Shown here piece after piece: positions 2,171 to 51,622 of a DNA stretch of 64,000 nucleotides. Made by a program: the position numbers and the translations under genes. Within the stretch, counting starts at the first letter, position 1, and each line of letters opens with the position of its first letter. The notes beneath the pieces were generated by a model. The model searched no databases, was not told where the DNA came from, and saw only the letters and a list, made by a program, of their open reading frames with translations. The stretch is from an uncultured Oscillospiraceae bacterium. Its GTDB lineage: Bacteria > Bacillota > Clostridia > Christensenellales > CAG-138. The stretch covers positions 1,558 to 65,557 of the forward strand of contig CAYWTY010000002.1 in the NCBI GenBank assembly GCA_964461335.1, written 5' to 3'.

Positions 2171-2946
2171 GTATGGCAGAAGGGGAGCTTCTATATAAGC
2201 TTTTAATAATATGCCCAATGCTCTTTCTTGCTGGGTTTGCAGACTCCATTGCAGGCGGAGGCGGCGTAATTTCGCTGCCTGCGTTTGTGTTTGCTGGGCT
2301 GCCGCTGCACATGGCTTATGGCACAAACAAATTTTCAATGTCTCTTGGTACATCTGTAAGCGCATACAAATACTATAAAGCCGGGCATCTGCGCCTTGCA
2401 ACTGCGCTTTTTGCAGTAGGGGGTGCGTTAATAGGCGCAAACATAGGCGCAAGCCTTGCGCTTTTGCTTAGCGAAAAGTATTTAAGCTATATCCTAATGG
2501 TGCTTTTGCCTATTGCTGCAGTGTTTATTATGGCAAATCGTAACTTCGGCGAGGCAGAAACAGCCCGCGAGCAGACAAAGGCTAAGGAGTATACTTTAAG
2601 TGCGCTGATAGGGCTTTTTGTAGGCGCATATGACGGCTTCTTCGGGCCAGGGGCAGGTATGTTTTACACGCTGCTTTTTGCATCCCTTTTAGGTTACAGC
2701 CTGCTAAGCGCCTCAGCAAATGCGCGTGTTGTAAACCTTGCGTCAAATATAGGCGCGCTTTTTGCATTTATCAGCGGGGGTAAAGTACTTTACGCAGTTG
2801 GCATACCTGCAGCCTTATGCACAATTTTAGGCAACTATTTGGGCGCAAGGCTTGCCATTAAAAACGGGGCGCGCTTTATAAAGCCTATAATGGTAGCTGT
2901 AATTGTGCTACTTATTCTTAAAATTGCAATTGACTATATCTTTTAG
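2167..2946 (+). CDS. TauE/SafE (TSUP) family membrane transporter
   Basis: 259 aa polytopic membrane protein with a two-half repeat and G-rich TM helices (AGGGGVISLP, YDGFFGPGAG). Confidence 0.75.
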   Translation: MSMAEGELLYKLLIICPMLFLAGFADSIAGGGGVISLPAFVFAGLPLHMAYGTNKFSMSLGTSVSAYKYYKAGHLRLATALFAVGGALIGANIGASLALLLSEKYLSYILMVLLPIAAVFIMANRNFGEAETAREQTKAKEYTLSALIGLFVGAYDGFFGPGAGMFYTLLFASLLGYSLLSASANARVVNLASNIGALFAFISGGKVLYAVGIPAALCTILGNYLGARLAIKNGARFIKPIMVAVIVLLILKIAIDYIF

Positions 2947-2976
2947 CGCATAGTTTATAAATAAATATGGCAAAAG

Positions 2977-3010
2977 AAAACGAGCCGTTGTTTTGGCTCG
3001 TTTGCTTTTG
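2977..3010 (+). terminator. intrinsic terminator after the TSUP gene
   Basis: aacgagcc-gttgtttt-ggctcgtt followed by tttgctttt. Confidence 0.6.
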
Positions 3011-3042
3011 CTTTTAAATTATTTTGGGGCTTAACAGCGCTT

Positions 3043-4548
3043 TTAAGTATTCCTGTGCCTTCTTTGCGGGCTTGAGAGTATTAAAATCTGCGTGCCTTCG
3101 CTTATCGGCTCCTTAAGCCCTTCATTCCAGCGCAAGAGCTGTTCAGGCGTAACATTAAAGCGCTTTGCAATGTTCCACACTGTGTCCCCTTCTGATGCAA
3201 GCGCAACCATAATCCCGCTCTCACGGCTTGTTGGCTCAACATTGAGTGCACCTGAAGCAAGCGCAAGCTCCTGCAAATTAAATGTGCGCGTAAGGATTTC
3301 AAGCAAATACTCTACATTAAGCGTTCTGCCTGTGCCGCTTGAGCGAACTTCTAGCGGCCGGATTATTGCAACAGCTTGTGGAGAATAGGGGATATCAAGC
3401 GTGCATTTTGCAGGTATATCTTCAGTAAACACGAACAACGCGCCTTCGCTTGTTGCATAAACAACCTCTGTTGCAAGCAGAGCATTTAGGGCAAGCTTGC
3501 CGTTATCATCAAAAAGGTTGAGCACAACAGGCCTGCAGCTTGTATAAACAACACGGCTAACTTCAGGGAGCTGCTCAGGAACCATCAGTTTCTCGCTAAT
3601 CGTACACAGCTCACTTGTGTTTCTTTCCGGTGAGAGCAGCTCAACATTTTCTTGGATACTCTCAACAGCTCCATCACTGCAATAGAAATCTTCGAGTATT
3701 CTTTGCTGATTTGCAACTATACAATTCGCCCTAAGCTCAATGCTTGCATCAAGGTCAAGCATCCCCTCTTGTGCGCTTATACCGAGCGAATAGTCTTTTA
3801 GCTCAGGTTTTACGCATATTGAGCCGCATGAGTTGTCAAGCTCAACTGCCATAAACTCCTCAAAAGGCAGGCGCTCGTTAAGTTGTGCAAGCGCACCTTC
3901 CGCATCCTCATAAAGCACAGTCACATACAGAATGCCGCTTATGTCAATGCCGTTTTCAGAAAGCCGTACATTGTTTATATGCGGCACTATATTGGCTCTG
4001 TGCACATGTGCTGCATTAGGTGCGCTAAGCGTATCGTTTAGGCGCAGTGTGGTTGAGCCAAGTTCGCGTGTGCTGGTAAAATCCGCATCATTGTGGCGCT
4101 TGTGGAGCTCACCCACGCCTGCAACATCAGTAAGTACCTGCATAGGTTCGTTGTCGCGTGCAACTGTATTAAGCTCAGCAACAGCTTCAACATGAACCCG
4201 CCTGTCTTTTAGGTCAGTGCGCAAATCAAAAAGTTGGGGCACAATTTCTGCTTCCATTCCGTCTTGTACGTTTTCAAGCGGAACATTGTGGTTGTAGCGC
4301 GTAGAGGCATGCACATCAAAGGGCTGCTCTTGCGCGTCAAGGCAAAGTATGTTCAGCGTGAGCGTTCCCTCAGCCTGTACGCCGCCTTCCACACAGCGGG
4401 CTGCTTCGTTGCGGATATGGCTCTCCACCCCAAGTATGCGCCCCGCCTCACGCCCCGCCGGCATAGGGATATCCCCCTCGATGAACGCCTGTACAATGCT
4501 TTTGCCTACAAGCCGTTCCAGATTAAGCTCATTATAGATGGGTTCCAT
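3043..4548 (-). CDS. SpoVID-like protein (DUF3794/SPOCS-type repeats plus C-terminal LysM)
   Basis: C-terminal LysM (GDTVWNIAKRFNVTPEQLLRWN). The N-terminal region resembles the SPOCS domain of spore-coat morphogenetic proteins. Start moved to the ATG at 4548 (MEPIYNELN, RBS agagaggtg), which removes the overlap with the upstream gene. Confidence 0.55.
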   Translation of the reverse strand: MEPIYNELNLERLVGKSIVQAFIEGDIPMPAGREAGRILGVESHIRNEAARCVEGGVQAEGTLTLNILCLDAQEQPFDVHASTRYNHNVPLENVQDGMEAEIVPQLFDLRTDLKDRRVHVEAVAELNTVARDNEPMQVLTDVAGVGELHKRHNDADFTSTRELGSTTLRLNDTLSAPNAAHVHRANIVPHINNVRLSENGIDISGILYVTVLYEDAEGALAQLNERLPFEEFMAVELDNSCGSICVKPELKDYSLGISAQEGMLDLDASIELRANCIVANQQRILEDFYCSDGAVESIQENVELLSPERNTSELCTISEKLMVPEQLPEVSRVVYTSCRPVVLNLFDDNGKLALNALLATEVVYATSEGALFVFTEDIPAKCTLDIPYSPQAVAIIRPLEVRSSGTGRTLNVEYLLEILTRTFNLQELALASGALNVEPTSRESGIMVALASEGDTVWNIAKRFNVTPEQLLRWNEGLKEPISEGTQILILSSPQRRHRNT

Positions 4549-4651
4549 ATTGCACCTCTCTTGACTGTGTATTTCTTTATCAATATATGAGTGGACATAC
4601 CCATACAGACTAACGGATTTCAATAATACGCGGCTTTGTTGCACTAACTGC

Positions 4652-7626: not shown

Positions 7627-8516
7627 TCCTGTTCTTTTATTCTGCGCACGCGTATAAAAACATCTACTCCGTCAGATACATCGGTTTGCTCAAGGCTTAC
7701 TTGCATACCTGCATCGCTAAGCTGTTTTACTGCAACTGAAATAGAGTTTAAAAAGAGCCTGTAATCTCTTAAATACCTAAGGATTTTGGGGCGGGGCGCT
7801 GCACCGTCCTGTTTTTCGTCATATAGGCGGTTAAGCGTCTTTTCTACAAGCTTTTCCGTATCTTTAACAGAAAGCGAACGGTTCTTTACGCGCTCAACTA
7901 CCTGAAGCTGCGTAGCCTCATCCTTAAGCTTTAAAAGCGCGCGCGCATGGCGCTCTGTCATTCGCGCGTTTTGCATTGCATCCTTAACTTTTTGCGGAAG
8001 CCTTAAAACGCGCAGCTTGTTTGCAACAGCGGATTGGCTTTTTCCAAGGCGGGTTGCAAGCTCCTCCTGCGTAAGGTTGTAGTTTGAAATAAGGGTTTCG
8101 TAACACTCCGCCTCTTCAAGGTAGTGCAGGTTTTCACGCTGCAGGTTTTCAATAAGCGCAACAAGCGTACTCTCTTGTTCAACCATTACTGCTTCAACAA
8201 GGCAGGGCACTTCGCTCATCCCAAGGCGCTTGCAAGCGCGAAGCCTGCGCTCTCCTGCAACAAGCTCATACCCTTCGCCTACGCGCCTTACTACAAGCGG
8301 CTGAATAAGGCCGACTTGGCGGATGGATTCTGCAAGCTCGTCAAGCCCTTCTTCATCGAAGTTTTTTCTTGGCTGGTTGGGGTTTGGGCGGATTTCATCA
8401 AGCTGGAGCCGCATAAGCTTGCGGCTGCTTTCGCCCGGAAACTCCATACCTATATTGCGCTGCTTGCTGCTTTTAGCAGGCTCGGGCTTGTCCTTTAAAA
8501 AATCAAATACTGCCAT
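7623..8516 (-). CDS. noc: ParB-family nucleoid occlusion protein (Noc-like)
   Basis: ParB box IRPNPNQPRKNFDEEGLDELAESIRQVGLIQPLVVR and GERRLRA. Position downstream of mnmG-rsmG. Start at the ATG at 8516. Confidence 0.8.
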   Translation of the reverse strand: MAVFDFLKDKPEPAKSSKQRNIGMEFPGESSRKLMRLQLDEIRPNPNQPRKNFDEEGLDELAESIRQVGLIQPLVVRRVGEGYELVAGERRLRACKRLGMSEVPCLVEAVMVEQESTLVALIENLQRENLHYLEEAECYETLISNYNLTQEELATRLGKSQSAVANKLRVLRLPQKVKDAMQNARMTERHARALLKLKDEATQLQVVERVKNRSLSVKDTEKLVEKTLNRLYDEKQDGAAPRPKILRYLRDYRLFLNSISVAVKQLSDAGMQVSLEQTDVSDGVDVFIRVRRIKEQD

Positions 8517-23725: not shown

Positions 23726-23802
23726 GGGGTTATAGCTCAGCTGGTCAGAGCGCTACGTTGACATCGTAGAGGCCGTTGGTTCGATCCCAACTAATCCCAC
23801 CA
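23726..23802 (+). tRNA. tRNA-Val (anticodon GAC)
   Basis: Cloverleaf read by hand: acceptor ggggtta/taatccc, anticodon arm ctacg-ttGACat-cgtag, T-loop ggttcgatcc, encoded CCA. Confidence 0.9.
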
Positions 23803-23989: not shown

Positions 23990-24063
23990 TGCGGAATTGT
24001 GTAATGGTAGCACCTACGACTCTGACTCGTATTGTCTAGGTTCAAATCCTAGTTCCGCAGCCA
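23990..24063 (+). tRNA. tRNA-Gln (anticodon CTG)
   Basis: U1-A72 acceptor tgcggaa/ttccgca, discriminator G, anticodon arm tacga-ctCTGac-tcgta, T-loop ggttcaaatcc, encoded CCA. Confidence 0.9.
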
Positions 24064-41769: not shown

Positions 41770-42600
41770 TTAGGGTTTGCCGTTTATCGGGAACTGCTTA
41801 ATGCAGCTTTGGCTTGGCTCTTTAGCAACAGGCGCCTCAAAAAGCGCTTCAAGCTGCAAAACGCGTTCGCGCAAAGCTAAAAGATGTTCTGCATGCTTTA
41901 TGCGCAGGTTTTCTAAAAATGCCTGAGACTCTTTAAGTGCAATATTAAGCGTTTGAATTGTTTCTTCAGCTGCAGCATTTTGTTTTCCTGCAGCGCGAAG
42001 TGCAGCTTTATATTCATAAAGCTTAGAATAAAGCTCCTCTTTGCTAAGCTCGCCCTCATTCGGGCTAAACTCAAGCGTCTTTATAGCTTTGTACAGGTTT
42101 GCCTCGTTTTCAAGCTCATTAAGGAGTTTTTCATGTTCCTTTTTCAGGCTGTTAAGTGCAGCTTCTGCTGCGCTTTTGCGCGCAAGCAGTGCGCCTGATT
42201 TTGCGCGCATTTCGTTTAGTGCGCTTTCTGTTGTTAAAAGCCTTGCCTGAAGGCTCCGGTATTCAAGGCGCAGGGCTTCCATTTCCAGAGAGTGCTTGCT
42301 TTGCAGCTTCTCAACAATAGGCCTTAGCTTTTCGCGCATATCTGCTTCTTGGTGCAGGTTTAGGGCTGCTTCTCTTGTCTTTTGCGCAAGCGTTTCTTTT
42401 AAGAAGCTGTTTTCTGTGTTAAGCACCATGAGCCTGTCTCTAAGTTCATTTGTTTCAGTGTAGAGCACGCGCTTCATTGCAGCAAGCGTGCTGTGCTGTT
42501 CTTCAAGCATGCTTACAAGCTGCGCTTTTTTATATGCGGAAAACTGCGCCTTTTCTACTTGCATTTTATTCGTTTTTATAAGCTCGTCATTGCGTTCCAT
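41770..42600 (-). CDS. coiled-coil protein (last large gene of the Tad operon)
   Basis: 276 aa, heptad-rich and Ala/Glu/Leu/Lys-rich. Overlaps the stop of the DUF192 gene. Confidence 0.4.
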   Translation of the reverse strand: MERNDELIKTNKMQVEKAQFSAYKKAQLVSMLEEQHSTLAAMKRVLYTETNELRDRLMVLNTENSFLKETLAQKTREAALNLHQEADMREKLRPIVEKLQSKHSLEMEALRLEYRSLQARLLTTESALNEMRAKSGALLARKSAAEAALNSLKKEHEKLLNELENEANLYKAIKTLEFSPNEGELSKEELYSKLYEYKAALRAAGKQNAAAEETIQTLNIALKESQAFLENLRIKHAEHLLALRERVLQLEALFEAPVAKEPSQSCIKQFPINGKP

Positions 42601-42943
42601 AATTATTGCCTTGCTCTATTTCAATTCGAAGCGCAGTTGGGGAGTTTAGCGCCCTATAACCACCTATTTGCAGCTCAAGCACATAAAAGCTGCCTTTAAC
42701 ACATTTGCCTGTTTTGTTGGGAGCGAGCGCTTCAAGGCATAAAAGCACATGCCCCGTTTTATCCATATAAATAACATCAATTGGCTCTGCCATAAAATGA
42801 GTGTGAATTTGGCTGCAAGGGTAAAGCAGAAGGCCGTCGATTTTGCGTTTGCACATAAGCCCGAAAAGGCGCAGAAAGAAGGTGTGCGCAACGCGCACTT
42901 TAAGGCTAAGCCCGTTTTCAGCATAAAGCGTGGCATACTTCAT
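42587..42943 (-). CDS. DUF192 domain protein
   Basis: LKVRVAHTFFLRLFGLM...IDVIYMDKTGHVL pattern of DUF192. One-nucleotide overlap between the tadC stop codon and this gene's start codon (TAATG). Confidence 0.6.
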   Translation of the reverse strand: MKYATLYAENGLSLKVRVAHTFFLRLFGLMCKRKIDGLLLYPCSQIHTHFMAEPIDVIYMDKTGHVLLCLEALAPNKTGKCVKGSFYVLELQIGGYRALNSPTALRIEIEQGNNYGTQ

Positions 42944-43866
42944 TATTGCTCACCAAAGACTTTTATTATGTTAAACACAGTAGGCCCCATAAGTATAATA
43001 AAAAGCACAGGGAAGATGCACAGCACCATTGGCAGGAGCATTTTTACAGAGGCCTTCATGCCCTTTTCCTGGGCTGCCTGCTTCCGAATAAGCCGCATAT
43101 GCGATGCCTGAGTCTTAAGCACGCTTTTTATTGGAGTTCCCATTTGTTCGGATTGGATAATTGCAGCAACAAGCGTCTTAAGCTCAGCAACGCTGTTATT
43201 TTCGCCAAGGTCATAGAGCGCCTCACGCCTGGGCTTGCCCATTTGGATTTCCATTGATGTTATTGTAAGCTCCTCCTTAAGTGCGCCTGTGAACTTATCG
43301 AGCGCGCGCTTTAATGCTAAGTCAAAGCTAAGCCCTGCATCAATGCTTACAGAGAGAATATCCATCATATCAGGAAGCTGCATTCTTATTGAACTCTGCC
43401 TTACTCTGCTTTTTAAAATTAAAAAGTAGGCAGGGAAGAGGAGCGAGATGAAAAGCCCGCATGCAATAGTAAGCAGCATTTCTTTTGTTTCAAGCTCCAT
43501 ATAAAGCGCAAACAATGTGCAAAGTAGCATTAAGCCTATTGTTATTGCAAGGCGGAGCGCGGAATATGCCTCAACACTTATGTAAAAGCCTGCTAAGCGG
43601 AGCTTTCGCTCAAGCTTGCTGTTTGCTTGGCTCTTTCTTAAAGCGCGCGATGCTGCACGCTCAATCTTTTGCTTAAACCTTGCAACAAGCGGCTTTATAA
43701 AGCGCTTTGAAAAATCCTCCTCAAGCTCATCAGAAAAGAGCTTATCCCCTTCCTGTATGCGCTTAATGCGAATTTGTTTTGCTTTATAGCGTGTGCGCGG
43801 GCGGTCGAAAAGCAATAGGATTATAATAAACGCAAAGCCTGATGAGCTCAATATAATAAAAGCCAT
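42943..43866 (-). CDS. tadC: Tad pilus inner-membrane platform protein TadC (T2SS-F family)
   Basis: T2SSF domain with 3-4 TMs. Start moved to the ATG at 43866 (RBS aaggaggg). Confidence 0.75.
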   Translation of the reverse strand: MAFIILSSSGFAFIIILLLFDRPRTRYKAKQIRIKRIQEGDKLFSDELEEDFSKRFIKPLVARFKQKIERAASRALRKSQANSKLERKLRLAGFYISVEAYSALRLAITIGLMLLCTLFALYMELETKEMLLTIACGLFISLLFPAYFLILKSRVRQSSIRMQLPDMMDILSVSIDAGLSFDLALKRALDKFTGALKEELTITSMEIQMGKPRREALYDLGENNSVAELKTLVAAIIQSEQMGTPIKSVLKTQASHMRLIRKQAAQEKGMKASVKMLLPMVLCIFPVLFIILMGPTVFNIIKVFGEQ

Positions 43867-43882
43867 ATGCCCTCCTTCTCCC

Positions 43883-44809
43883 TTAATACTTAATTGAAAC
43901 GATTTTGCGGATGATTGCGTAACCGATAAATTCAAGCGCTCCTGCTAAAACAAGCAGCATACGCCCATTGTGTGTTGTAAAGAACACCTGCATATAGTCG
44001 GGGTTCATAAGCATTAAAACAAGGCCTATAACAACAGGCATAAACCCTATTACCATGCCTGAAATTCTGCCTGTTGATGTTATTGTGTGAATTTCAGCCT
44101 TAACTTTAAGGCGGTCTGTAACTGTCTGCGCAATGCTCTCAAGCACAGCTGAGAGGTTCCCGCCAACCTGCTGCGCAATTAAAATTGCTGTTACCATGAG
44201 TTTTACATCAGCGCTTGCAACACGGTGAGTAAGGTTTGTAAGCGCACGCTCAGCAGTGCTGCCAAGCTGCATTTCACGAAGCACACGCGCAAACTCGCGG
44301 CTTATAGGTTCGCTCATATGCTCTGAAACATGCTGCATCCCCTGCTGGAATGTAAGCCCGCTTTTAAGGCAGTTGCTTATGCTCGTAATTGCATCCGCAA
44401 GCTGCTTTTCAAACGCTAAGAGGCGCTTCCTGCGGCTGTGCCTCACATAGAGCGGCGGCAGGCAAAGCCCTATTAGCGTAAGCGTTGGGGGTATGAGCAT
44501 ATGCGCTTCAAGCAGGAAGCTTATTGCAGGCGGAACAAGCGCAAGCACAACCCAAAGTATTAAGAACTCCTCAGCGCGCATAGGCACGCCTGCGCTTGCA
44601 AGCTGCTCAATGAGCACTGCTGAGATTTTTATTGACGGTTTGCGCTGCCTTAAAAGTTCCTTTTTTGTAAGCTCACGCAAACGCTCGCCGCCAAGCGTTT
44701 TAAGGCGAGTTTGCGCTTTTAGCCTGTCGCGAAGGAGCGTTGCGCCAATAAGCGCAGCTGTTAGAAAAACCAGCGCAACAATGCTTATGCTAAGCAGCAG
44801 CTTTTCCAT
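43883..44809 (-). CDS. tadB: Tad pilus inner-membrane platform protein TadB (T2SS-F family)
   Basis: T2SSF domain. Follows the CpaF ATPase gene. Confidence 0.75.
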   Translation of the reverse strand: MEKLLLSISIVALVFLTAALIGATLLRDRLKAQTRLKTLGGERLRELTKKELLRQRKPSIKISAVLIEQLASAGVPMRAEEFLILWVVLALVPPAISFLLEAHMLIPPTLTLIGLCLPPLYVRHSRRKRLLAFEKQLADAITSISNCLKSGLTFQQGMQHVSEHMSEPISREFARVLREMQLGSTAERALTNLTHRVASADVKLMVTAILIAQQVGGNLSAVLESIAQTVTDRLKVKAEIHTITSTGRISGMVIGFMPVVIGLVLMLMNPDYMQVFFTTHNGRMLLVLAGALEFIGYAIIRKIVSIKY

Positions 44810-44824
44810 TGCCCCTCCTTAATA

Positions 44825-46165
44825 TTATTTAAACCAGTCTTCCTGTACAGGTACACCGTTTGTGCGAATCTTTTCCGCACAGCGCGGGAACACGCCTGTT
44901 GTGCGAAAGCGCCCGTAGAAGCGCCCCTCTCCGTCAAACGCACCATCTGTTTCAAAAACAAAAATATCCTGCATTGTGACTGTATCGCCCTCCATGCCTG
45001 TTATTTCTGCAATGCTTGTTACCCTGCGCGAGCCGTCGCGAAGCCTGCTCTGATGTACAATTACATCAACAGCACTTGCAATTTGCCCGCGGATAGCAAG
45101 CGCAGGCAGCTCTACTCCTGCCATAAGCACCATTGTTTCTACACGCGCAATCATATCGCGCGGGGAGTTTGCGTGGCAGGTAGAAAGTGAGCCGTCATGG
45201 CCTGTGTTCATTGCCTGGAGCATATCAAGCGCTTCGCCTCCGCGCACTTCACCTACAATTATTCTATCAGGCCGCATACGAAGTGCGTTTCTAACAAGCT
45301 CACGAATTGTTATTTCGCCCCTGCCTTCAAGGTTTGCAGGCCTGCTCTCAAGGGTTATAACATGCTGCTGGTGCAGTTGTAGCTCTGCTGCATCCTCAAT
45401 TGTGACTATTCTTTCATCCTGCGAAACAAAGCCGGAAAGCACGTTTAAAAGTGTTGTTTTGCCGCTTCCTGTTCCGCCAGAAACCATTATATTAAGCCGC
45501 CCTTTAACGCACGCATCAAGGAAGCTTGCCATGCGTTGGGAGAGTGAGCCGAAGTCAACAAGGTCATGCACTTTAAAGGGCGTTTTCGCAAACTTTCGAA
45601 TTGTTACTGTTGGCCCTATAAGAGAAAGCGGGGGTATAATTATATTAACGCGGGAGCCATCCTTAAGTCGCGCATCAACCATTGGGCTTGATTCGTCAAC
45701 ATGCCGCCCTATGCCTGCGACTATTTTTTCAATTATCTGCATAACAGCTTCATCATCGCGAAAAGTTACATTCGAAAGGTGTAGCTTGCCATTGCGCTCA
45801 ACAAATACTTGGCTTGGCCCATTAACCATAATTTCGCTTATACTTGGGTCGTTTAAAAGCTCCTCAATAGGGCCTAAGCCCATTACTTCGTTGTAGAGCA
45901 TTGTAGCAATGCGCGCCCGCTCTAAGCGAGTTATTGCATTTGCATATTCCATTAGCACATCGTCAATTACGCTTTGCACCTGTGTGCAGCTTGGCTCGCC
46001 ACCCTGCGTGCGCAGGCGGTCAATTACGCGGTAGCGTACACGCTCGCGTATAGCTTCGTACTGCTCATGAGATGCATCGGATATTACAAGCGCAGCCTGC
46101 GCTTGTACATCTGTTTTAGGTGCGCTTACTTCATCGGCTTTGTTAAGCCTTACTCTTAGGCTCAT
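44825..46165 (-). CDS. tadA: Tad pilus secretion ATPase CpaF/TadA
   Basis: Walker A VSGGTGSGKTTLLN, Asp box IVTIEDAAEL, Walker B RPDRIIVGEVRG, His box. Confidence 0.9.
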   Translation of the reverse strand: MSLRVRLNKADEVSAPKTDVQAQAALVISDASHEQYEAIRERVRYRVIDRLRTQGGEPSCTQVQSVIDDVLMEYANAITRLERARIATMLYNEVMGLGPIEELLNDPSISEIMVNGPSQVFVERNGKLHLSNVTFRDDEAVMQIIEKIVAGIGRHVDESSPMVDARLKDGSRVNIIIPPLSLIGPTVTIRKFAKTPFKVHDLVDFGSLSQRMASFLDACVKGRLNIMVSGGTGSGKTTLLNVLSGFVSQDERIVTIEDAAELQLHQQHVITLESRPANLEGRGEITIRELVRNALRMRPDRIIVGEVRGGEALDMLQAMNTGHDGSLSTCHANSPRDMIARVETMVLMAGVELPALAIRGQIASAVDVIVHQSRLRDGSRRVTSIAEITGMEGDTVTMQDIFVFETDGAFDGEGRFYGRFRTTGVFPRCAEKIRTNGVPVQEDWFK

Positions 46166-47280
46166 TTTGCAAACACCTCCGCTGCCATATCTTTAAGCTG
46201 CCTGCCTAAAAGGCTGCGCGGCTCCTCAAGCACAATTGGTCTTCCTATGCACTGAGAGCGGTCTGCAAGTTTATCATCGCGTGTAAGTATAAACTCCGGT
46301 TTTGTGCCTAAAACACGCTCAACATCTTTTAGCGAAAGGAATGCCTTGCAGTCTTTATTGTAAATATAGCCGACCTTTTCGCGAAGCTGCAGCGATGTAA
46401 GCACAGTTGTTGCAAGGTGCGCTGCGCGTATGCTTGCAAGGTCGGGCTGCAAGACTATGTAAATCTGGTTGCTGTTTTCAAGCGCTGTAATTGTCGTATC
46501 TGTAAAGTTTGCTGGTAAATCCATAAAAATGCAGTCAAAAAACGGGCGCATTACAGAAAGTACGCTTTCAATATGGCGGCCTTCCACATATTCGCCGCTA
46601 TCCGGCGTATTAGGCCCAGCAAGCACAGTAAGCCCTGAGTAATGCTGCACAGTAAAGCCGCGCAGCACATCCATAGTTAGGTTTGCGCGCTCCTGCGCAA
46701 GCTCTGCAATTGTGTCCTTTGCTTGAATATCCAAATAAAGCGCTGTACACGCATAATCAAGGTTTAAGTCTAATAGCGCAACCTTTTTACCCTGTTTTGC
46801 AAGCGCAGCAGCCATATTTACTGCAAGCGTTGTTTTGCCTGTGCCGCCCTTGCCCGAGTATATGCTTATTACGCGCGTTTTCCCTGGCGAGGCTTCCCTG
46901 CCTCCTGGCCGCGCCTGCTCAAGCGCACCTGCGCGGCGCACTGTATCAAGCACAGATGCACCACCCTCTTCAAACGAAGCAAGCAGCCGAATGCCGGAGT
47001 TTAGCGCTTCTTTTGCAAGCTCAAGGTTCAGCTCCTCGCTAAGGAGCACAATTGCGCAGCCCTCTACGCTTTGATAAATCCTCTGCGCTATATCGTATGT
47101 AGCAGGGGACTCATAGCAAATAAGCGCAACATCCGGCAAAAGCCCCTGCGCTTTTTGCACAGCTAAAGGTGATACATCGCTGTAACCCACAATCGCTATA
47201 TCGCTTGCATCGAGGATTCCCTTTATTTTGTAGCGCAATGTCTTATCGCTGCTTAATACGAGCACCTTAAGCTTTTCCAT
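46162..47280 (-). CDS. TadZ/CpaE-like protein (receiver-like N-domain plus ParA/MinD ATPase)
   Basis: Deviant Walker A SGKGGTGKTTLA. The N-terminal CheY-like fold begins KVLVLSSD. Start at the ATG at 47280 (RBS aaggaga). Confidence 0.7.
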   Translation of the reverse strand: MEKLKVLVLSSDKTLRYKIKGILDASDIAIVGYSDVSPLAVQKAQGLLPDVALICYESPATYDIAQRIYQSVEGCAIVLLSEELNLELAKEALNSGIRLLASFEEGGASVLDTVRRAGALEQARPGGREASPGKTRVISIYSGKGGTGKTTLAVNMAAALAKQGKKVALLDLNLDYACTALYLDIQAKDTIAELAQERANLTMDVLRGFTVQHYSGLTVLAGPNTPDSGEYVEGRHIESVLSVMRPFFDCIFMDLPANFTDTTITALENSNQIYIVLQPDLASIRAAHLATTVLTSLQLREKVGYIYNKDCKAFLSLKDVERVLGTKPEFILTRDDKLADRSQCIGRPIVLEEPRSLLGRQLKDMAAEVFAK

Positions 47281-47290
47281 GCGTTTCTCC

Positions 47291-48031
47291 TTATCGGCCA
47301 AGTACAGGCAGAGGTATGAACAGTTCCGAAGGGCCTGCGCTTGTATCGCTTGGGTTTCTAAGCGTGAAATAAATATGCGCTCCGCTTGTTATAGCGTAGT
47401 GGAGCGCAAGTGCGTCATCAGCATTAAGGCTAAGCGTAATTAAGCCATAGCCTGTTACCTGCTGGCCTGAAATGTTCGCTGAAAGCGGGCCAAGTTCAAG
47501 CACACGCACGCGTTCTATTAAAAGGCCTGAAGCATAGGTTTTTGTTATTTCCTTTGTGCCGTCAGGCGCTTCTTCTTCATCGTAAATTGTATACGCGCAC
47601 ATAATATCCACAAAGTCGCTCTTAGAGATATAGCCGCCAACACCTGCAGCTTCATCAATTGAGAGCGTAATAGCGCGCATTCCCTCCTCAACAACATACG
47701 AAAGCTGCCCGCCTTGGCTGCCGCTTGTAATGTCGCTAAGCTGCTCATGCGAAAGCTGCTGGCCAAGGGGCAGGTAGTAGCGGCTTATTTTGCCAACTGC
47801 ATCATTAAGCGATGTAATTGCATTTGGCGCAACCCACTCAAGCGCAGTTTCTTTAAGTGCAACCATATCAGAAGTAATAACCATGTTTTCGCCAATTGGC
47901 ACAGCTGCTACAACAACCTGACCCATGGGTGTAATTACAGTTGCCTTCTTTTCAAGCGCTGAAGCGAAAAAATAGGCTGCTACGCCTGTTAAAACTGCGA
48001 AAATAGCTGCGAGTATATAAATCTTCTTCAT
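47291..48031 (-). CDS. cpaB: Flp pilus assembly protein CpaB (SAF domain)
   Basis: N-terminal TM plus a SAF/RcpC-like body. Position in the locus. Confidence 0.7.
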   Translation of the reverse strand: MKKIYILAAIFAVLTGVAAYFFASALEKKATVITPMGQVVVAAVPIGENMVITSDMVALKETALEWVAPNAITSLNDAVGKISRYYLPLGQQLSHEQLSDITSGSQGGQLSYVVEEGMRAITLSIDEAAGVGGYISKSDFVDIMCAYTIYDEEEAPDGTKEITKTYASGLLIERVRVLELGPLSANISGQQVTGYGLITLSLNADDALALHYAITSGAHIYFTLRNPSDTSAGPSELFIPLPVLGR

Positions 48032-48118
48032 TAAGCCCGCCTTTCATGTGGATGTTTTCGGCGTATAATTAAGGTAATATGTAAAGCATGTTTGCGTATC
48101 TTCAAAAAATAAAAACAC

Positions 48119-48514
48119 TCAGGCAATTTTCATTTGCGTAAAGGCGCTTAGGCTGTACATGCCGCCTTGTGCATTAGTAAAAAGCGATGCAATTGGCGTT
48201 AGAGTTGGCACACTTTTATTTACTGTAACTTTTATGTCGTCACCTATAAGGCTTACAAGCACATCCGTTGCTCCAGGGCCTTTGATCATATTTTGAACAA
48301 GCACTTCAACATCTATTGTAAGCGTTGCTGACTCGCTATTTACAATTGCGTAGCGCGCACCTTCGCGGCTCCCGTTTTCAATGCTCATTTGGTTGTAAAA
48401 ATACCAGCCAAACTCCATAATGCCAAAAAGCAGCAGCAAAAGCACAGGCAGCGAAACCGCAAGCTCAACAAGCGCTTGGCCGCTTTCAAAATGTGCATTC
48501 TGCCGCTTTTTCAT
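48119..48514 (-). CDS. TadE-like pseudopilin
   Basis: ESGQALVELAVSLPVLLLLLFGIMEFGWYF is a TadE/G N-terminal motif. Start at the ATG at 48514 (RBS ggagg). Confidence 0.7.
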   Translation of the reverse strand: MKKRQNAHFESGQALVELAVSLPVLLLLLFGIMEFGWYFYNQMSIENGSREGARYAIVNSESATLTIDVEVLVQNMIKGPGATDVLVSLIGDDIKVTVNKSVPTLTPIASLFTNAQGGMYSLSAFTQMKIA

Positions 48515-48528
48515 TTTGCCTCCGTTTT

Positions 48529-48559
48529 GCATATCCGCCCGCTTAGCGGGCGGATATGC
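48529..48559 (-). other. 14-bp perfect stem-loop between flp and tadE
   Basis: gcatatccgcccgc-tta-gcgggcggatatgc. No U-tract follows on the coding (minus) strand. Confidence 0.5.
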
Positions 48560-48612: not shown

Positions 48613-48786
48613 TTATGGGGCAGGCACTACAAGCTTGTCACTGGCTGCTGTGAACAGGGCGGAAATCTTCGGCCCTAAAAGAACCAAGGCCCCAATTGCA
48701 GCTATTGCGACAAGTGCGAGTATAAGCCCGTATTCGACCATGCCTTGGCCGTTTTCATCCTTTAGGATGTCCATGAACTTTTTCAT
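48613..48786 (-). CDS. flp: Flp/Fap family pilin (57 aa, missing from ORF track)
   Basis: MKKFMDILKDENGQGMVEYGLILALVAIAAIGALVLLGPKISALFTAASDKLVVPAP. It has the Flp processing motif G-xxxx-EY followed by a hydrophobic helix. RBS aaaggagaaa. Confidence 0.85.
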   Translation of the reverse strand: MKKFMDILKDENGQGMVEYGLILALVAIAAIGALVLLGPKISALFTAASDKLVVPAP

Positions 48787-48798
48787 ATTATTTCTCCT

Positions 48799-49455
48799 TT
48801 AAAATTTAAAGTTTAGCATTGTTTCAAGCAGCGGGAAGACCATAGCTGAAGCTGCACCTAACGAAATGTACGGCCCCATTGCTGCAAGCGACTTCCGTGT
48901 GCCCTTTTTGTGGATGTAAAGGTAAACTAAATGTCCGACCATTGCAACCCCCATAACAAGCATGATTTGCAAAAGCCCGATTAACCCGAAGCAGAAGCCT
49001 AAAATTATAGCGTATTTAACATCCCCCCAGCCAATGTTTAGGCCAAATTTTGAGGGGAGGATAAACACAGCGCCTGCAGCTAATGCGCCAAGCAGGCTTG
49101 AAGTAAGCTCCCACCCTGCGCTTGCAGTCTTATATAGCGCAAATACTAAGAGCATTGCAAGAAGCAGCTCATTTGGGATGCGCCTAATAAGAAGGTCAAC
49201 TGCGCTTAAGGCGAGCATTAGCTCAAAAAGCAATAGTGCAAAAAGCACGCTAAGCGCACCTTGAGGCAGAAGAAGCAGAGAGATTAACATAAAGGCAGCG
49301 GAATTTAGCGCGCACCAGCCGTATACAGCGTATTTCGCGCTTATAAGCGGGCTTGTAGAGGGCGCCTCAACGCGCTTTGCAATGAGCGTTCGCGTTAAGT
49401 TTAGCATGGGTACGCCTAAGAGGGCGCCTGCAAGTGCTGCTATGGGTATCCACAT
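48799..49455 (-). CDS. A24-family prepilin peptidase (TadV/CpaA-like)
   Basis: Polytopic, with the GWGDVKY aspartyl motif. Start at the ATG at 49455 (MWIPIAALAG, RBS ggagga). Confidence 0.8.
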   Translation of the reverse strand: MWIPIAALAGALLGVPMLNLTRTLIAKRVEAPSTSPLISAKYAVYGWCALNSAAFMLISLLLLPQGALSVLFALLLFELMLALSAVDLLIRRIPNELLLAMLLVFALYKTASAGWELTSSLLGALAAGAVFILPSKFGLNIGWGDVKYAIILGFCFGLIGLLQIMLVMGVAMVGHLVYLYIHKKGTRKSLAAMGPYISLGAASAMVFPLLETMLNFKF

Positions 49456-49595
49456 AAATCCTCCGAGCGTAGTACTTTGCCCCAAAAGGGGCATGTCGTG
49501 ACGCTTCACCGAATGCCGGCTAATTCGTCTACGCTGCATCTTTTGATGCGGCAGATACTTTGCTCTGCCATATTCGTAAACAAAAGCAGCTCAAT

Positions 49596-49678
49596 CCGGC
49601 GGCTGGCTGCCGTGGGCTTATCGCCTTTAGGCCCTTTAGCTTTGCGTGAGCAGCCTTTCGGCTGCCTTGCCCTTTTCA
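49596..49678 (-). promoter_or_regulatory. c-di-GMP-I (GEMM-I)-like riboswitch aptamer, copy A
   Basis: Minus strand: AAGGGCAAGGCAGCCGAAAGGCUGCUCACGCAAAGCUAAAGGGCCUAAAGGCGAUAAGCCCACGGCAGCCAGCCGCC. It carries the GGCAA / GAAA-capped hairpin / ACGCAAAGC / GGCCUAAA / AGCCAG signature. Confidence 0.65.
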
Positions 49679-49882
49679 ATTAAGAGATACTTTTGTAAGC
49701 GCTTCATAGTTTTCTATGCGGTGCTTACCGGGAACTTAGGTATTTGCTAAAAATTGGCTGTACGCAAACTGCTCTTTTGCAGCGAAGCATATTTTAAAAC
49801 CACCTCCAACAATGTATTGCCTGCGCACAAGATTGCGCCTTACTATTAGTTTCGTGCAAATTGCGCGAAAGTTAATACAGCC

Positions 49883-51295
49883 TTAGCGAATAAGCTTAAC
49901 TCGCTCAACAAGCTCATTCCCCATAAAGTCCGGTTCCCCCTCAAGCGGGAAGATTGAGACTTTCCCCGGGATTGTAACCTGTTTGCCGATTATATGCCCA
50001 TAATACGAGCCGCCGTAGCCTTGCCATGTAATCTTTCCATTAGGCGCAAACAGCACGCCCCTGCCTGTTTGGTATTTTATATCGATGTTGCCGTTTGCCG
50101 AAACAACACAAATCATATCTCCTGCATTTAGGTTTGCCTCATAGCTGTTGAATGCAATATTCCCTTTGGCAAATAAATTCCCCTTGCCATGAGCAGCAGC
50201 GCCTGAGGTAAGCGAACCTCCGGCAAATATATTGCACCCGTCTAAGGTGCAGGTATAGCCTGAAATCGCTATATTTCCGCCTGCGTAAATGCTCCCCTTG
50301 CTTATAAAGGCGTTCCCAAGGCTAATATCATTTAGCGCGTAAATTATGCCGTCATTGTCTATATAGCTGCCTACAAATGTAATGCTCCCGCCTGAAAACA
50401 CATTGCCCTTGCCCCTGAAGCTGTTCCCAAACGAAATGTCGCCTGTTGCGTAAATTGTGCCGTTTAGCTCACAAACAGGTGCTGTGCCCTGTATTTTAAG
50501 GTTCCCGTCAACATAGAGGTTGCCGTTTACAGTAGTTTCGTTTGTGAAGGTGCAGCTGCCTGTTATATAGGTATTGCCTGTAAAAACCTGCTTAACGCCT
50601 GGCACAATATCTGCGGGGTTAAGCACTGTATATGTCGCAAGGTCGCCTGGAAGCTTGGGCTGGCTTGGCTTAAGATTCTGCTCGATTTTGTTTATATCCG
50701 GCATTTCCTCCTTTGGAGCGCTGCCAGAAACGCCGCCTAAAACCTTATAGCTGTTGTGAATTGTGGCTGTATGTACTGCGCTTGCTCTGCCTCTAATTGT
50801 GCTGTAACCTGCAGGGTGCCAAGAAGACGAGAAGTTAAGCGAGCCGTTTGCGTGAACATTGCCCCAAATATTTAGCGGGTCGCTTGATTTTAGCGTAAAG
50901 CCAGCATCATCTGTAAAAAGCAGGTAGTCAAACGAAAAGCCGTTGCTTGAAAATGTTTTTTCTGCGCTTGCAAGTGCATTAACTGAATTTTCCTTCCTGC
51001 CGAATACGCTTGAAAACCCGGCGCCTACTGCCTTTGTGCCTGAAGCTGTAATAACCATGTTGTTGTTTTCAAAGTCAAACTCCACCCCGTCTGCACTAAA
51101 GCCGTTTGCATTTAGGTATTTTTCCGCTTCAAGGCGCGCAAGCCCTGTATCAGGCAGGAGCGTAGCCCCTGCAAGCACGCTTGCATCAAGCGCTGTCTGC
51201 AGGCGCGTGTTTTCAAGGTAGAGCATGCTCATATCAATAGCGAGCGCGCCAAACCCCAAAAGAACTGCCATTGCTACTGCTATTACAACTATCAT
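49883..51295 (-). CDS. TadG-like pilus-associated protein with C-terminal beta-helix-type repeats
   Basis: N-terminus IAVAMAVLLGFGALAIDMSMLYLENTRLQTALDASVLAGA is a Tad/TadG N-terminal motif. The C-terminal half has three ~33-aa G-N-I/G-D-I repeats (IYATGDISFGNSF.., IYALNDISLGNAF.., IFAGGSLTSGAAA..). Confidence 0.65.
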   Translation of the reverse strand: MIVVIAVAMAVLLGFGALAIDMSMLYLENTRLQTALDASVLAGATLLPDTGLARLEAEKYLNANGFSADGVEFDFENNNMVITASGTKAVGAGFSSVFGRKENSVNALASAEKTFSSNGFSFDYLLFTDDAGFTLKSSDPLNIWGNVHANGSLNFSSSWHPAGYSTIRGRASAVHTATIHNSYKVLGGVSGSAPKEEMPDINKIEQNLKPSQPKLPGDLATYTVLNPADIVPGVKQVFTGNTYITGSCTFTNETTVNGNLYVDGNLKIQGTAPVCELNGTIYATGDISFGNSFRGKGNVFSGGSITFVGSYIDNDGIIYALNDISLGNAFISKGSIYAGGNIAISGYTCTLDGCNIFAGGSLTSGAAAHGKGNLFAKGNIAFNSYEANLNAGDMICVVSANGNIDIKYQTGRGVLFAPNGKITWQGYGGSYYGHIIGKQVTIPGKVSIFPLEGEPDFMGNELVERVKLIR

Positions 51296-51327: not shown

Positions 51328-51357
51328 AACAAAAAATCGCAGCTTCCCAGCTGCGAT
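51328..51357 (-). terminator. leader terminator (expression platform of riboswitch copy B)
   Basis: Minus strand: AUCGCAGCU-GGGA-AGCUGCGAU followed by U6, 35 nt upstream of the ATG at 51295. Confidence 0.7.
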
Positions 51358-51389
51358 AATAACGCATACGGCTTTTGCCGCTATTGCGG

Positions 51390-51470
51390 TACTGCAACTG
51401 GCTGCCTTTGGCTTTTGCCTTTAGGCCCTGTAGTTTTGCGCCACCGGCTTTCACCGGCTTTGCCCTTAAA
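51390..51470 (-). promoter_or_regulatory. c-di-GMP-I (GEMM-I)-like riboswitch aptamer, copy B
   Basis: Minus strand: AAGGGCAAAGCCGGUGAAAGCCGGUGGCGCAAAACUACAGGGCCUAAAGGCAAAAGCCAAAGGCAGCCAGUUGCAG. Confidence 0.7.
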
Positions 51471-51509
51471 ACCCTAAAATATTGCCATACATCATATGGA
51501 GTATTAAAT

Positions 51510-51538
51510 ATTATATATCAGTTGCATTTGTTTGTCAA
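51510..51538 (-). promoter_or_regulatory. consensus sigma-A promoter of the Tad locus leader
   Basis: Minus strand: TTGACA (51538-51533), 17 nt, TATAAT (51515-51510). Confidence 0.65.
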
Positions 51539-51622
51539 ACAGTTAATTTTGGGGAGTTGGATAGATTTTGCTTTGTTTGCAGAGTATGCTCTAAGTCTAA
51601 ACCTACGCTTAACTGCGTAGTT

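Follow-up and report, generated by a model that had tools for sequence, protein, structure and literature searches.

A predicted c-di-GMP-I riboswitch of OFF design in the leader of a TadG-like gene at a Tad/Flp pilus locus of an uncultured Clostridia bacterium

The riboswitch closest in design to the leader described here is Cd1 of C. difficile (Cdi-1-3), located upstream of flgB, for which the strand logic was established by experiment and in which the ligand favors termination, making it an OFF switch (PMC9262584, PMC6200980). The class I riboswitches of C. difficile are uniformly OFF switches, and one of them is located ahead of a putative adhesin (PMC6200980). A riboswitch acting on pilus genes is also known from this host, because the pilA1 gene of type IVa pili is controlled through transcription termination by the c-di-GMP riboswitch Cdi-2-4, which has a class II aptamer and works in the opposite, ON direction (PMC6200980). 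In a broader survey, cpaA, pilM, pilO, pilQ, and pulF were among the gene families associated with GEMM, with more than one instance upstream, and tandem GEMMs were also noted (Weinberg et al. 2007, PMC1950547). That table lists gene families only, and does not extend to locus analysis, direction of control, Tad loci of Clostridia, or several aptamers per locus. Tandem c-di-GMP-I riboswitches are common and have been counted as 347 doublets and 12 triplets (Sherlock et al. 2022, PMC9481103), and the triple tandem Bc3-5 of Bacillus thuringiensis has been characterized (PMC4759541). In the literature on riboswitch-controlled Tad loci in Bacillota we found no analysis or test, but only the 2007 gene-family table and reviews citing C. 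difficile pilA1.

In the window, which is the whole 64-kb stretch of DNA that was analyzed, the leader at 51538-51296 likely constitutes a complete c-di-GMP-I riboswitch acting on transcription as an OFF switch, for which we infer the ligand binding, the direction in vivo, the co-transcription, and the physiology (this and the other window features below are on the minus strand unless stated otherwise). The leader resembles Cd1 in having a class I aptamer and a terminator placed tens of nucleotides downstream, in belonging to a Clostridia-class host of the Bacillota, and in an antiterminator that would consist of the 3′ strand of the aptamer and the 5′ strand of the terminator. It differs from Cd1, which precedes flagellar genes and was tested experimentally, in that it stands before a TadG-like gene and a probable Tad/Flp operon and in that its switching is predicted; the expression-platform sequences of the two elements are unrelated. 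The likeness to Cdi-2-4 is limited to c-di-GMP control of pilus genes by transcription termination in a Clostridia-class host, as the aptamer class, the pilus type, and the predicted direction are different. A preliminary description of this DNA regarded an OFF switch before a pilus or adhesin gene as contrary to the usual rule, and it knew of no characterized riboswitch-controlled Tad locus in Gram-positive spore-formers. The surprise was overstated in view of the uniform OFF direction of the C. difficile class I riboswitches (PMC6200980) and of the association of cpaA with GEMM, which dates from 2007 (PMC1950547). The element is of a known type, and the one feature that is mildly unexpected is that c-di-GMP is predicted to repress Tad genes.

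The whole window was compared with 4227 Rfam families, and the data showed a match to RF01051 at 51474-51390, which covered positions 1-87 of the 87-position model with a score of 70.7 bits (gathering score, 35), and with an E-value of 7.5e-12 that refers to that scan. This match is far beyond chance, and it bears out the c-di-GMP-I aptamer that had been proposed at this place before the RF01051 search. The 85-nt aptamer contains a GAAA-capped hairpin 1 (GCCGGU-GAAA-GCCGGU) and a hairpin 2 with a CCUAAA tetraloop-receptor-like bulge; in the consensus alignment the receptor hairpin corresponds to GGGCCUAAAGGC...GCCAAAGGCAGCC, with one non-standard pair flagged. The closure of P1 by pairing of UUGC with GCAA, as given in the preliminary description, was not consistent with the register of the family, in which the base of hairpin 2 is formed by AGUU and AACU and the next C is the ligand-pairing nucleotide. 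At the positions equivalent to G20, A47, and C92 of Vc2 the aptamer carries G (AAG-G-GCAAA), A (GGCGC-A-AA), and C (AGUU-G-C), of which the A following GGCGC presumably corresponds to the intercalating A47 of the Vc2 structure. In Vc2, G20 makes a Hoogsteen contact to G-alpha and C92 forms a Watson-Crick pair with G-beta, and in the cGAMP-sensing relatives of this class G20 is replaced by A (PMC6140456). Both aptamers of the window, including a second one described below, carry G at this position, unlike GEMM-Ib. By its family, the leader element is classified as a genuine class I riboswitch, which would be expected to bind c-di-GMP.

The aptamer is preceded by a sigma-70-type promoter, in which TTGACA (51538-51533) and TATAAT (51515-51510) are separated by 17 nucleotides. 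This promoter, already pointed out in the preliminary description, obtained a consensus score of 12 out of 12, and it was the sole perfect match in the 10 kb scanned. Just 3′ of the predicted transcription start, constrained folds showed a small 5′-terminal hairpin, CCAUAUGAUGUAUGG (51485-51499), and related leaders have a different small hairpin at this position. Downstream of the aptamer there is an intrinsic terminator (51357-51331) with a 9-bp stem AUCGCAGCU/AGCUGCGAU, a GGGA loop, and the tail UUUUUGUUU, whose hairpin AUCGCAGCU-GGGA-AGCUGCGAU at 51357-51336 has a predicted energy of -14.4 kcal/mol. A consensus scan also returned this 9-pair hairpin, as ATCGCAGCTGGGAAGCTGCGAT at 51357-51336 followed by TTTTTGTTT. 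The GGGA-capped stem was as first described, but the stem is followed by U5-G-U3 rather than by the reported U6, which is obtained only when the closing U is counted, and the distance between the aptamer and the terminator is about 33-36 nt instead of 40. The terminator and the aptamer have no nucleotides in common. The ribosome binding site AGGAGAGG (51306-51299) is located 3 nt ahead of the ATG at 51295, which opens a 470-codon frame, in agreement with the initial assignment of both signals.

The part of the leader on which the predicted switching depends is the strand CCAGUUGC (51401-51394), which could serve either as the 3′ strand of the aptamer or as the 5′ strand of an antiterminator. 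In the model of the ligand-bound aptamer, CCAGUUGC provides the 3′ strand of the hairpin-2 base and the ligand-pairing C; in the structure of the covariance model six of its eight nucleotides are located in hairpin 2, and the final C is the base pairing with the ligand. Because CCAGUUGC serves both of these functions, ligand binding and the antiterminator would be mutually exclusive. The partner of this strand is GCAGCUGG (51354-51347), which consists of the terminator 5′ arm and loop, and the two strands form 8 bp including one G-U pair. When the nascent transcript was folded up to the terminator loop, i.e., before the terminator 3′ arm is made, the minimum-energy structure contained this antiterminator, which was lengthened by AGUA:UAUU and closed around a spacer hairpin (51389-51361), with -57.1 kcal/mol in comparison to -42.8 kcal/mol for the structure with the aptamer enforced. 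The spacer hairpins of related leaders are of similar size but not homologous. When the aptamer was enforced in a fold of the complete leader RNA, the terminator formed. Since about 14 kcal/mol favors the antiterminator when tertiary and ligand energies are ignored, the switch would have to work kinetically.

In the mechanism proposed here, transcription would start a few nucleotides past the TATAAT box, and the 85-nt aptamer would fold first. If c-di-GMP was bound, CCAGUUGC would be locked in the hairpin-2 base and by the Watson-Crick pair with the ligand, and then the terminator hairpin with its U-tract could form, causing RNA polymerase to terminate ahead of the TadG-like gene. If the ligand was not present, GCAGCUGG would capture CCAGUUGC, a long antiterminator hairpin would close, and read-through into the TadG-like gene would follow. 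Ligand binding should therefore terminate transcription, a direction that follows from the Cd1-like design.

To see how far this arrangement extends beyond the window, the contigs of relatives were scanned. Only about 20 relatives of the TadG-like protein were present in the protein collection, and with one genome per species they gave about 20 species-level loci, which came from metagenome-assembled genomes of uncultured Bacillota, Clostridia, Christensenellales, and Oscillospiraceae; the closest relative was 'Bacillota bacterium UR.bin92', with 93% protein identity. The data showed that an RF01051 aptamer precedes the TadG-like gene in all loci with full-length relatives. A promoter matching 10-12 of 12 consensus positions was found 13-35 nt 5′ of the aptamer in each of 22 related leaders, and an automated search placed a terminator 24-58 nt 3′ of the aptamer in 18 of 20, with none found under the criteria used in L028 and L029. 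In the minimum-energy fold of the nascent transcript, the 3′ strand of the aptamer was paired to the 5′ arm of the terminator in 17/20 first leaders, and also in 18/18 leaders of a second aptamer present in these loci; the nascent folds of L004 and L010 contained no antiterminator. When pairs were counted in a fixed register without gaps, 7-8 of the 8 antiterminator pairs were retained in all 37 instances of the first and second aptamers, and the single variable position was occupied by A:U (25 times), G:C (11 times), or G:U (once), and never by a mismatch.

The antiterminator, which had been proposed in the preliminary description as 8 bp with one G-U, thus not only appeared in the nascent minimum-energy fold, but was also recovered by RNAalifold as the only consensus structure of 26 related leader sequences, the middles of which could not be aligned. 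In these 26 leaders the helix was unbroken (182/182 cells paired), a value reached by none of 500 shuffles, and controls with slid strands gave 10-52% pairing. One antiterminator pair showed a compensatory change, from A-U to G-C. This covariation is thin, because the aptamer dictates the 5′ strand of the helix: it concerns one pair, which tracks two clades and so reflects few independent events, and the aptamer itself constrains the remaining six pairs. What really speaks for the antiterminator is that the segment that must match the aptamer strand is the only part in which the terminators do not differ.

These observations bear on the direction of the switch. A terminator overlapping hairpin 2, as found in 78 of 322 GEMM instances, is presumed to indicate an ON arrangement (Weinberg et al. 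2007, PMC1950547), and c-di-GMP usually promotes adhesion structures, both of which could suggest that the aptamer is real but that its ligand favors read-through. The geometry of the window leader makes such an ON switch very improbable, because its terminator begins 33 nt past the aptamer, with zero overlap, and because the only conserved alternative partner of the terminator 5′ arm is the aptamer 3′ strand, a strand that the ligand-bound fold keeps occupied. This geometry is that of an OFF switch.

The gene behind the leader (49883-51295, 470 aa) matched PF13400 with an E-value of 2e-9, and its homologues contain PF13400 together with DUF7305. The AlphaFold model of the protein (pLDDT 79) consists of a 43-residue N-terminal helix of the TadE/G type, a small alpha/beta head, and a long beta-solenoid. 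A Foldseek search of this model against the PDB gave nothing at E <= 0.001, and the weak top matches were generic beta-helices, namely those of ice-binding proteins, the Thermus ComZ pilin, and Caldicellulosiruptor tapirins. The TadG-like gene is followed by a prepilin (A24) peptidase gene, tadV (48799-49455, 218 aa, PF01478), and by the gene for a Flp pilin (48613-48786, PF04964, E = 2.7e-9). The longest peptidase reading frame (48799-49539) begins inside a riboswitch leader, at 49539, and the start was revised to the ATG at 49455, with the Shine-Dalgarno sequence GGAGG at 49464-49460, by comparison with 19 orthologues. The remaining Tad components are encoded at 42587-48532, where Pfam matches identified a TadE-like minor pilin (48119-48532, PF07811), RcpC/CpaB (47291-48031, PF16976), TadZ/CpaE (46162-47301, ParA/AAA_31), the TadA/CpaF ATPase (44825-46165, PF00437), TadB (43883-44809, PF00482), TadC (42943-43935, PF00482), and a DUF192 protein (42587-42943). 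For the TadG-like protein, the peptidase, Flp, and TadE, no matches to NCBIfam names were obtained. Judged by their domains, the genes 3′ of the TadG-like gene form a complete Tad/Flp (type IVc) pilus locus.

On the other side, msrAB is located upstream of the TadG-like gene. In one related locus (L001), a dCache-PAS-GGDEF protein, a putative diguanylate cyclase, is encoded at 2199-4091, three genes upstream of the TadG-like gene and two before msrAB, and therefore the lineage would have the means to make c-di-GMP. No GGDEF protein was found among the window flanking ORFs that were scanned. The Rfam scan of the window also returned two tRNA genes on the plus strand, at 23726-23799 and 23990-24060, which are unrelated to the riboswitch.

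The analysis showed that the window contains a second c-di-GMP-I aptamer, absent from the preliminary description, at 49595-49681 (RF01051, 61.8 bits, full-length). It is located 3′ of the TadG-like gene and 5′ of the prepilin peptidase gene, and its ligand positions are occupied by the canonical G, A, and C. The gene behind it belongs to the cpaA family, and in this respect the locus agrees with the 2007 table, in which GEMM-I elements are found 5′ of type IV and Tad pilus genes. The two window aptamers are about 1.7-1.8 kb apart with the TadG-like ORF between them. Between the stop codon of the TadG-like gene and the second aptamer there was neither a terminator nor a promoter matching at least 9 of 12 consensus positions, and for this reason read-through from the first promoter is likely. 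Hence, transcription probably continues past the TadG-like gene to the second aptamer and to tadV-flp-tadE-rcpC-tadZ-tadA-tadB-tadC as one co-transcribed unit, and the Tad pilus genes would be on at low c-di-GMP and shut off when c-di-GMP is high. This arrangement is similar to tandem riboswitches in that several complete class I riboswitches would stand in series on one transcription unit, but it is different from tandems sharing one untranslated region, because in the window the aptamers are parted by a 470-codon gene.

The second window aptamer is the homologue of an aptamer that is the third one in related loci, with which it has the flanking sequences ACAAAAGU (49689-49696, 5′) and GCUUUUGU (49580-49587, 3′) in common. 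These two blocks were invariant in 14/14 aligned leaders, they are present in most leaders of the other clade, and in L010 both are gone together. They could form a long extension of P1, which was seen in the minimum-energy fold of the window sequence, or alternatively ACAAAAGU could be a -10-like box. Folding of the second window leader with and without the aptamer enforced gave no clear terminator or SD-sequestering alternative, and a terminator search downstream of this aptamer also detected none, unlike for the third aptamers of the relatives. An Rfam search at a permissive E-value for a degenerate third aptamer in the window region 49350-49950 returned nothing besides RF01051. The possibility that a small ORF follows the TadG-like gene ahead of the second aptamer was rejected, because the candidate peptides were not conserved even in L013, which is the closest related locus with a 93% identical TadG-like protein, and because the reading frame is broken by indels in relatives.

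In the related loci the number of aptamers is higher. Three RF01051 aptamers per Tad locus were found in about 20 species of uncultured Bacillota/Clostridia (L001, L004, L007, L009, L010, L012, L014-L024, L026, L028, and L030), for example at 2766-2853, 4506-4592, and 4990-5080 of L014. The first aptamer precedes the TadG-like gene, the second directly follows this gene, and the third precedes the peptidase gene; it is the middle one that has been lost in the window and in L013. The second aptamer of the relatives has the same OFF platform as the first, and in one clade also its own consensus promoter. It is separated by 90-380 nt from the third aptamer within one intergenic region. The third aptamer has a terminator 65-100 nt downstream, the 5′ arm of which (CAUUCGG) pairs in the nascent fold with CCGAAUG located directly after the aptamer; the platform modeled for it is thus again of OFF design. 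The second and third aptamers of the relatives are closer to a tandem than the two aptamers of the window, and in one clade the stretch between them is conserved and non-coding.

The loss of one of three aptamers in the window lineage, together with a second riboswitch that has no recognizable platform there, raises the question of whether the first leader could be a decayed or constitutive attenuator, in which the aptamer has lost its switching function and the terminator simply damps the output of a very strong promoter. There are precedents for such a state, since several class I aptamers of C. difficile have no detectable function (PMC6200980). This explanation is even less probable than an ON switch, because the bit score of the window aptamer equals the level of its relatives, and because the aptamer, the promoter, the terminator, and the antiterminator have been kept across about 20 species in surroundings that diverged beyond alignment. 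An OFF riboswitch that still responds to its ligand is the preferred reading of the first leader, and its support is close to the most that computational methods can provide.

The additional aptamers also differ at positions that determine specificity. The second aptamers of 11 relatives (L001 7493-7578, L004 7353-7437, L007, L012, L014-L016, L018, L019, L021, and L026), as well as the third aptamer of L012, have A at the equivalent of G20, reading AGCAAA in place of GGCAAA. These second aptamers bear the signature of cGAMP-sensing or bispecific GEMM-Ib riboswitches, in genomes of the Clostridia type. The third aptamers of one clade (L022 4537-4625, L023 4498-4584, L024 2212-2297, L028 4557-4643, and L030 4539-4625) read GACGCGAAGC, with G at the equivalent of A47, which is the signature of the 'c-di-GMP-I-GGC' variant, and the one in L022 passes the gathering score of RF03167. 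Even with such variants in the locus family, it is least probable of all that the window leader senses another cyclic dinucleotide (3′3′-cGAMP, as GEMM-Ib) or an unknown ligand (that of the Rfam GGC/UAU variants), given the canonical G, A, and C in both window aptamers, the G and C at the equivalents of G20 and C92 in 23/23 orthologous first aptamers, and the rank of RF01051 as the best-scoring model of its clan for the window aptamer.

The OFF reading with c-di-GMP as ligand leads to a clean prediction that can be put to the test, namely that c-di-GMP shuts off the Tad pilus genes by premature termination, in a lineage without cultured members that is known from metagenomes only. If this prediction holds, the rule seen in C. 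difficile, in which class I means OFF, would reach another surface organelle, and the connection of c-di-GMP to pili would not be uniformly positive in Bacillota. The known mechanisms of riboswitches are unchanged by this element, but its conserved antiterminator with a compensatory pair makes the leader a convenient natural model for the design of OFF switches. A wider interpretation, which we regard as possible but rather doubtful, is that the Tad/Flp pilus of this clade belongs to a low-c-di-GMP programme governed by two or three chained GEMM-I riboswitches at successive checkpoints of the locus, namely on either side of the gene for the TadG-like beta-solenoid pilin and ahead of the genes for the peptidase and the pilin machinery. 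This interpretation draws on the G20A (cGAMP or bispecific) signature of the middle aptamer in relatives, on the A47G 'GGC' signature of the third aptamer in one clade, and on a conserved non-coding stretch of about 300 nt, with several candidate hairpins and no Rfam match, that separates two of the switches. If this was true, the locus would integrate more than one cyclic-dinucleotide signal, and the pili would serve, for example, DNA uptake or dispersal rather than sessile attachment. Tad pili of monoderms can serve DNA uptake, as in Micrococcus luteus, rather than attachment, but such a role for the pili encoded in the window is speculation.

The stretch that follows the terminator of the second riboswitch and precedes the third aptamer in relatives (L014 4676-4989, and also L001, L004, L007, L009, L012, L015-L021, and L026) is about 300 nt long, conserved, and apparently non-coding. 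It contains the block GAAAGGnGGUGAUA, a hairpin with the loop CCUCCCAC, and a stem located between UGCAAGGC and GCCGGGUA, the sequence of which differs by clade with the complementarity kept. RNAalifold indicated 10 pairs with compensatory change in this stretch, and no Rfam family matched it at E <= 5. In the surrounding region of L014 (4400-5350), searched at a permissive E-value, the only match besides RF01051 was a sub-threshold one to 'sok' (33 bits in comparison to a gathering score of 59), which lies over the platform of the third aptamer and was regarded as chance. The window retains a remnant of the stretch at 49882-49682, in which only GGAGGUGG (49807-49800) and a few further bases are recognizable. 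Another motif, CUCCCACACGGGCGGAC, forms a hairpin with a C-rich loop resembling an anti-SD sequence (L004 about 7925-7955, and 3′ of the third aptamer in L007, L009, L020, and L026), and its position thus varies among relatives, some having it in the inter-aptamer stretch and others past the third aptamer.
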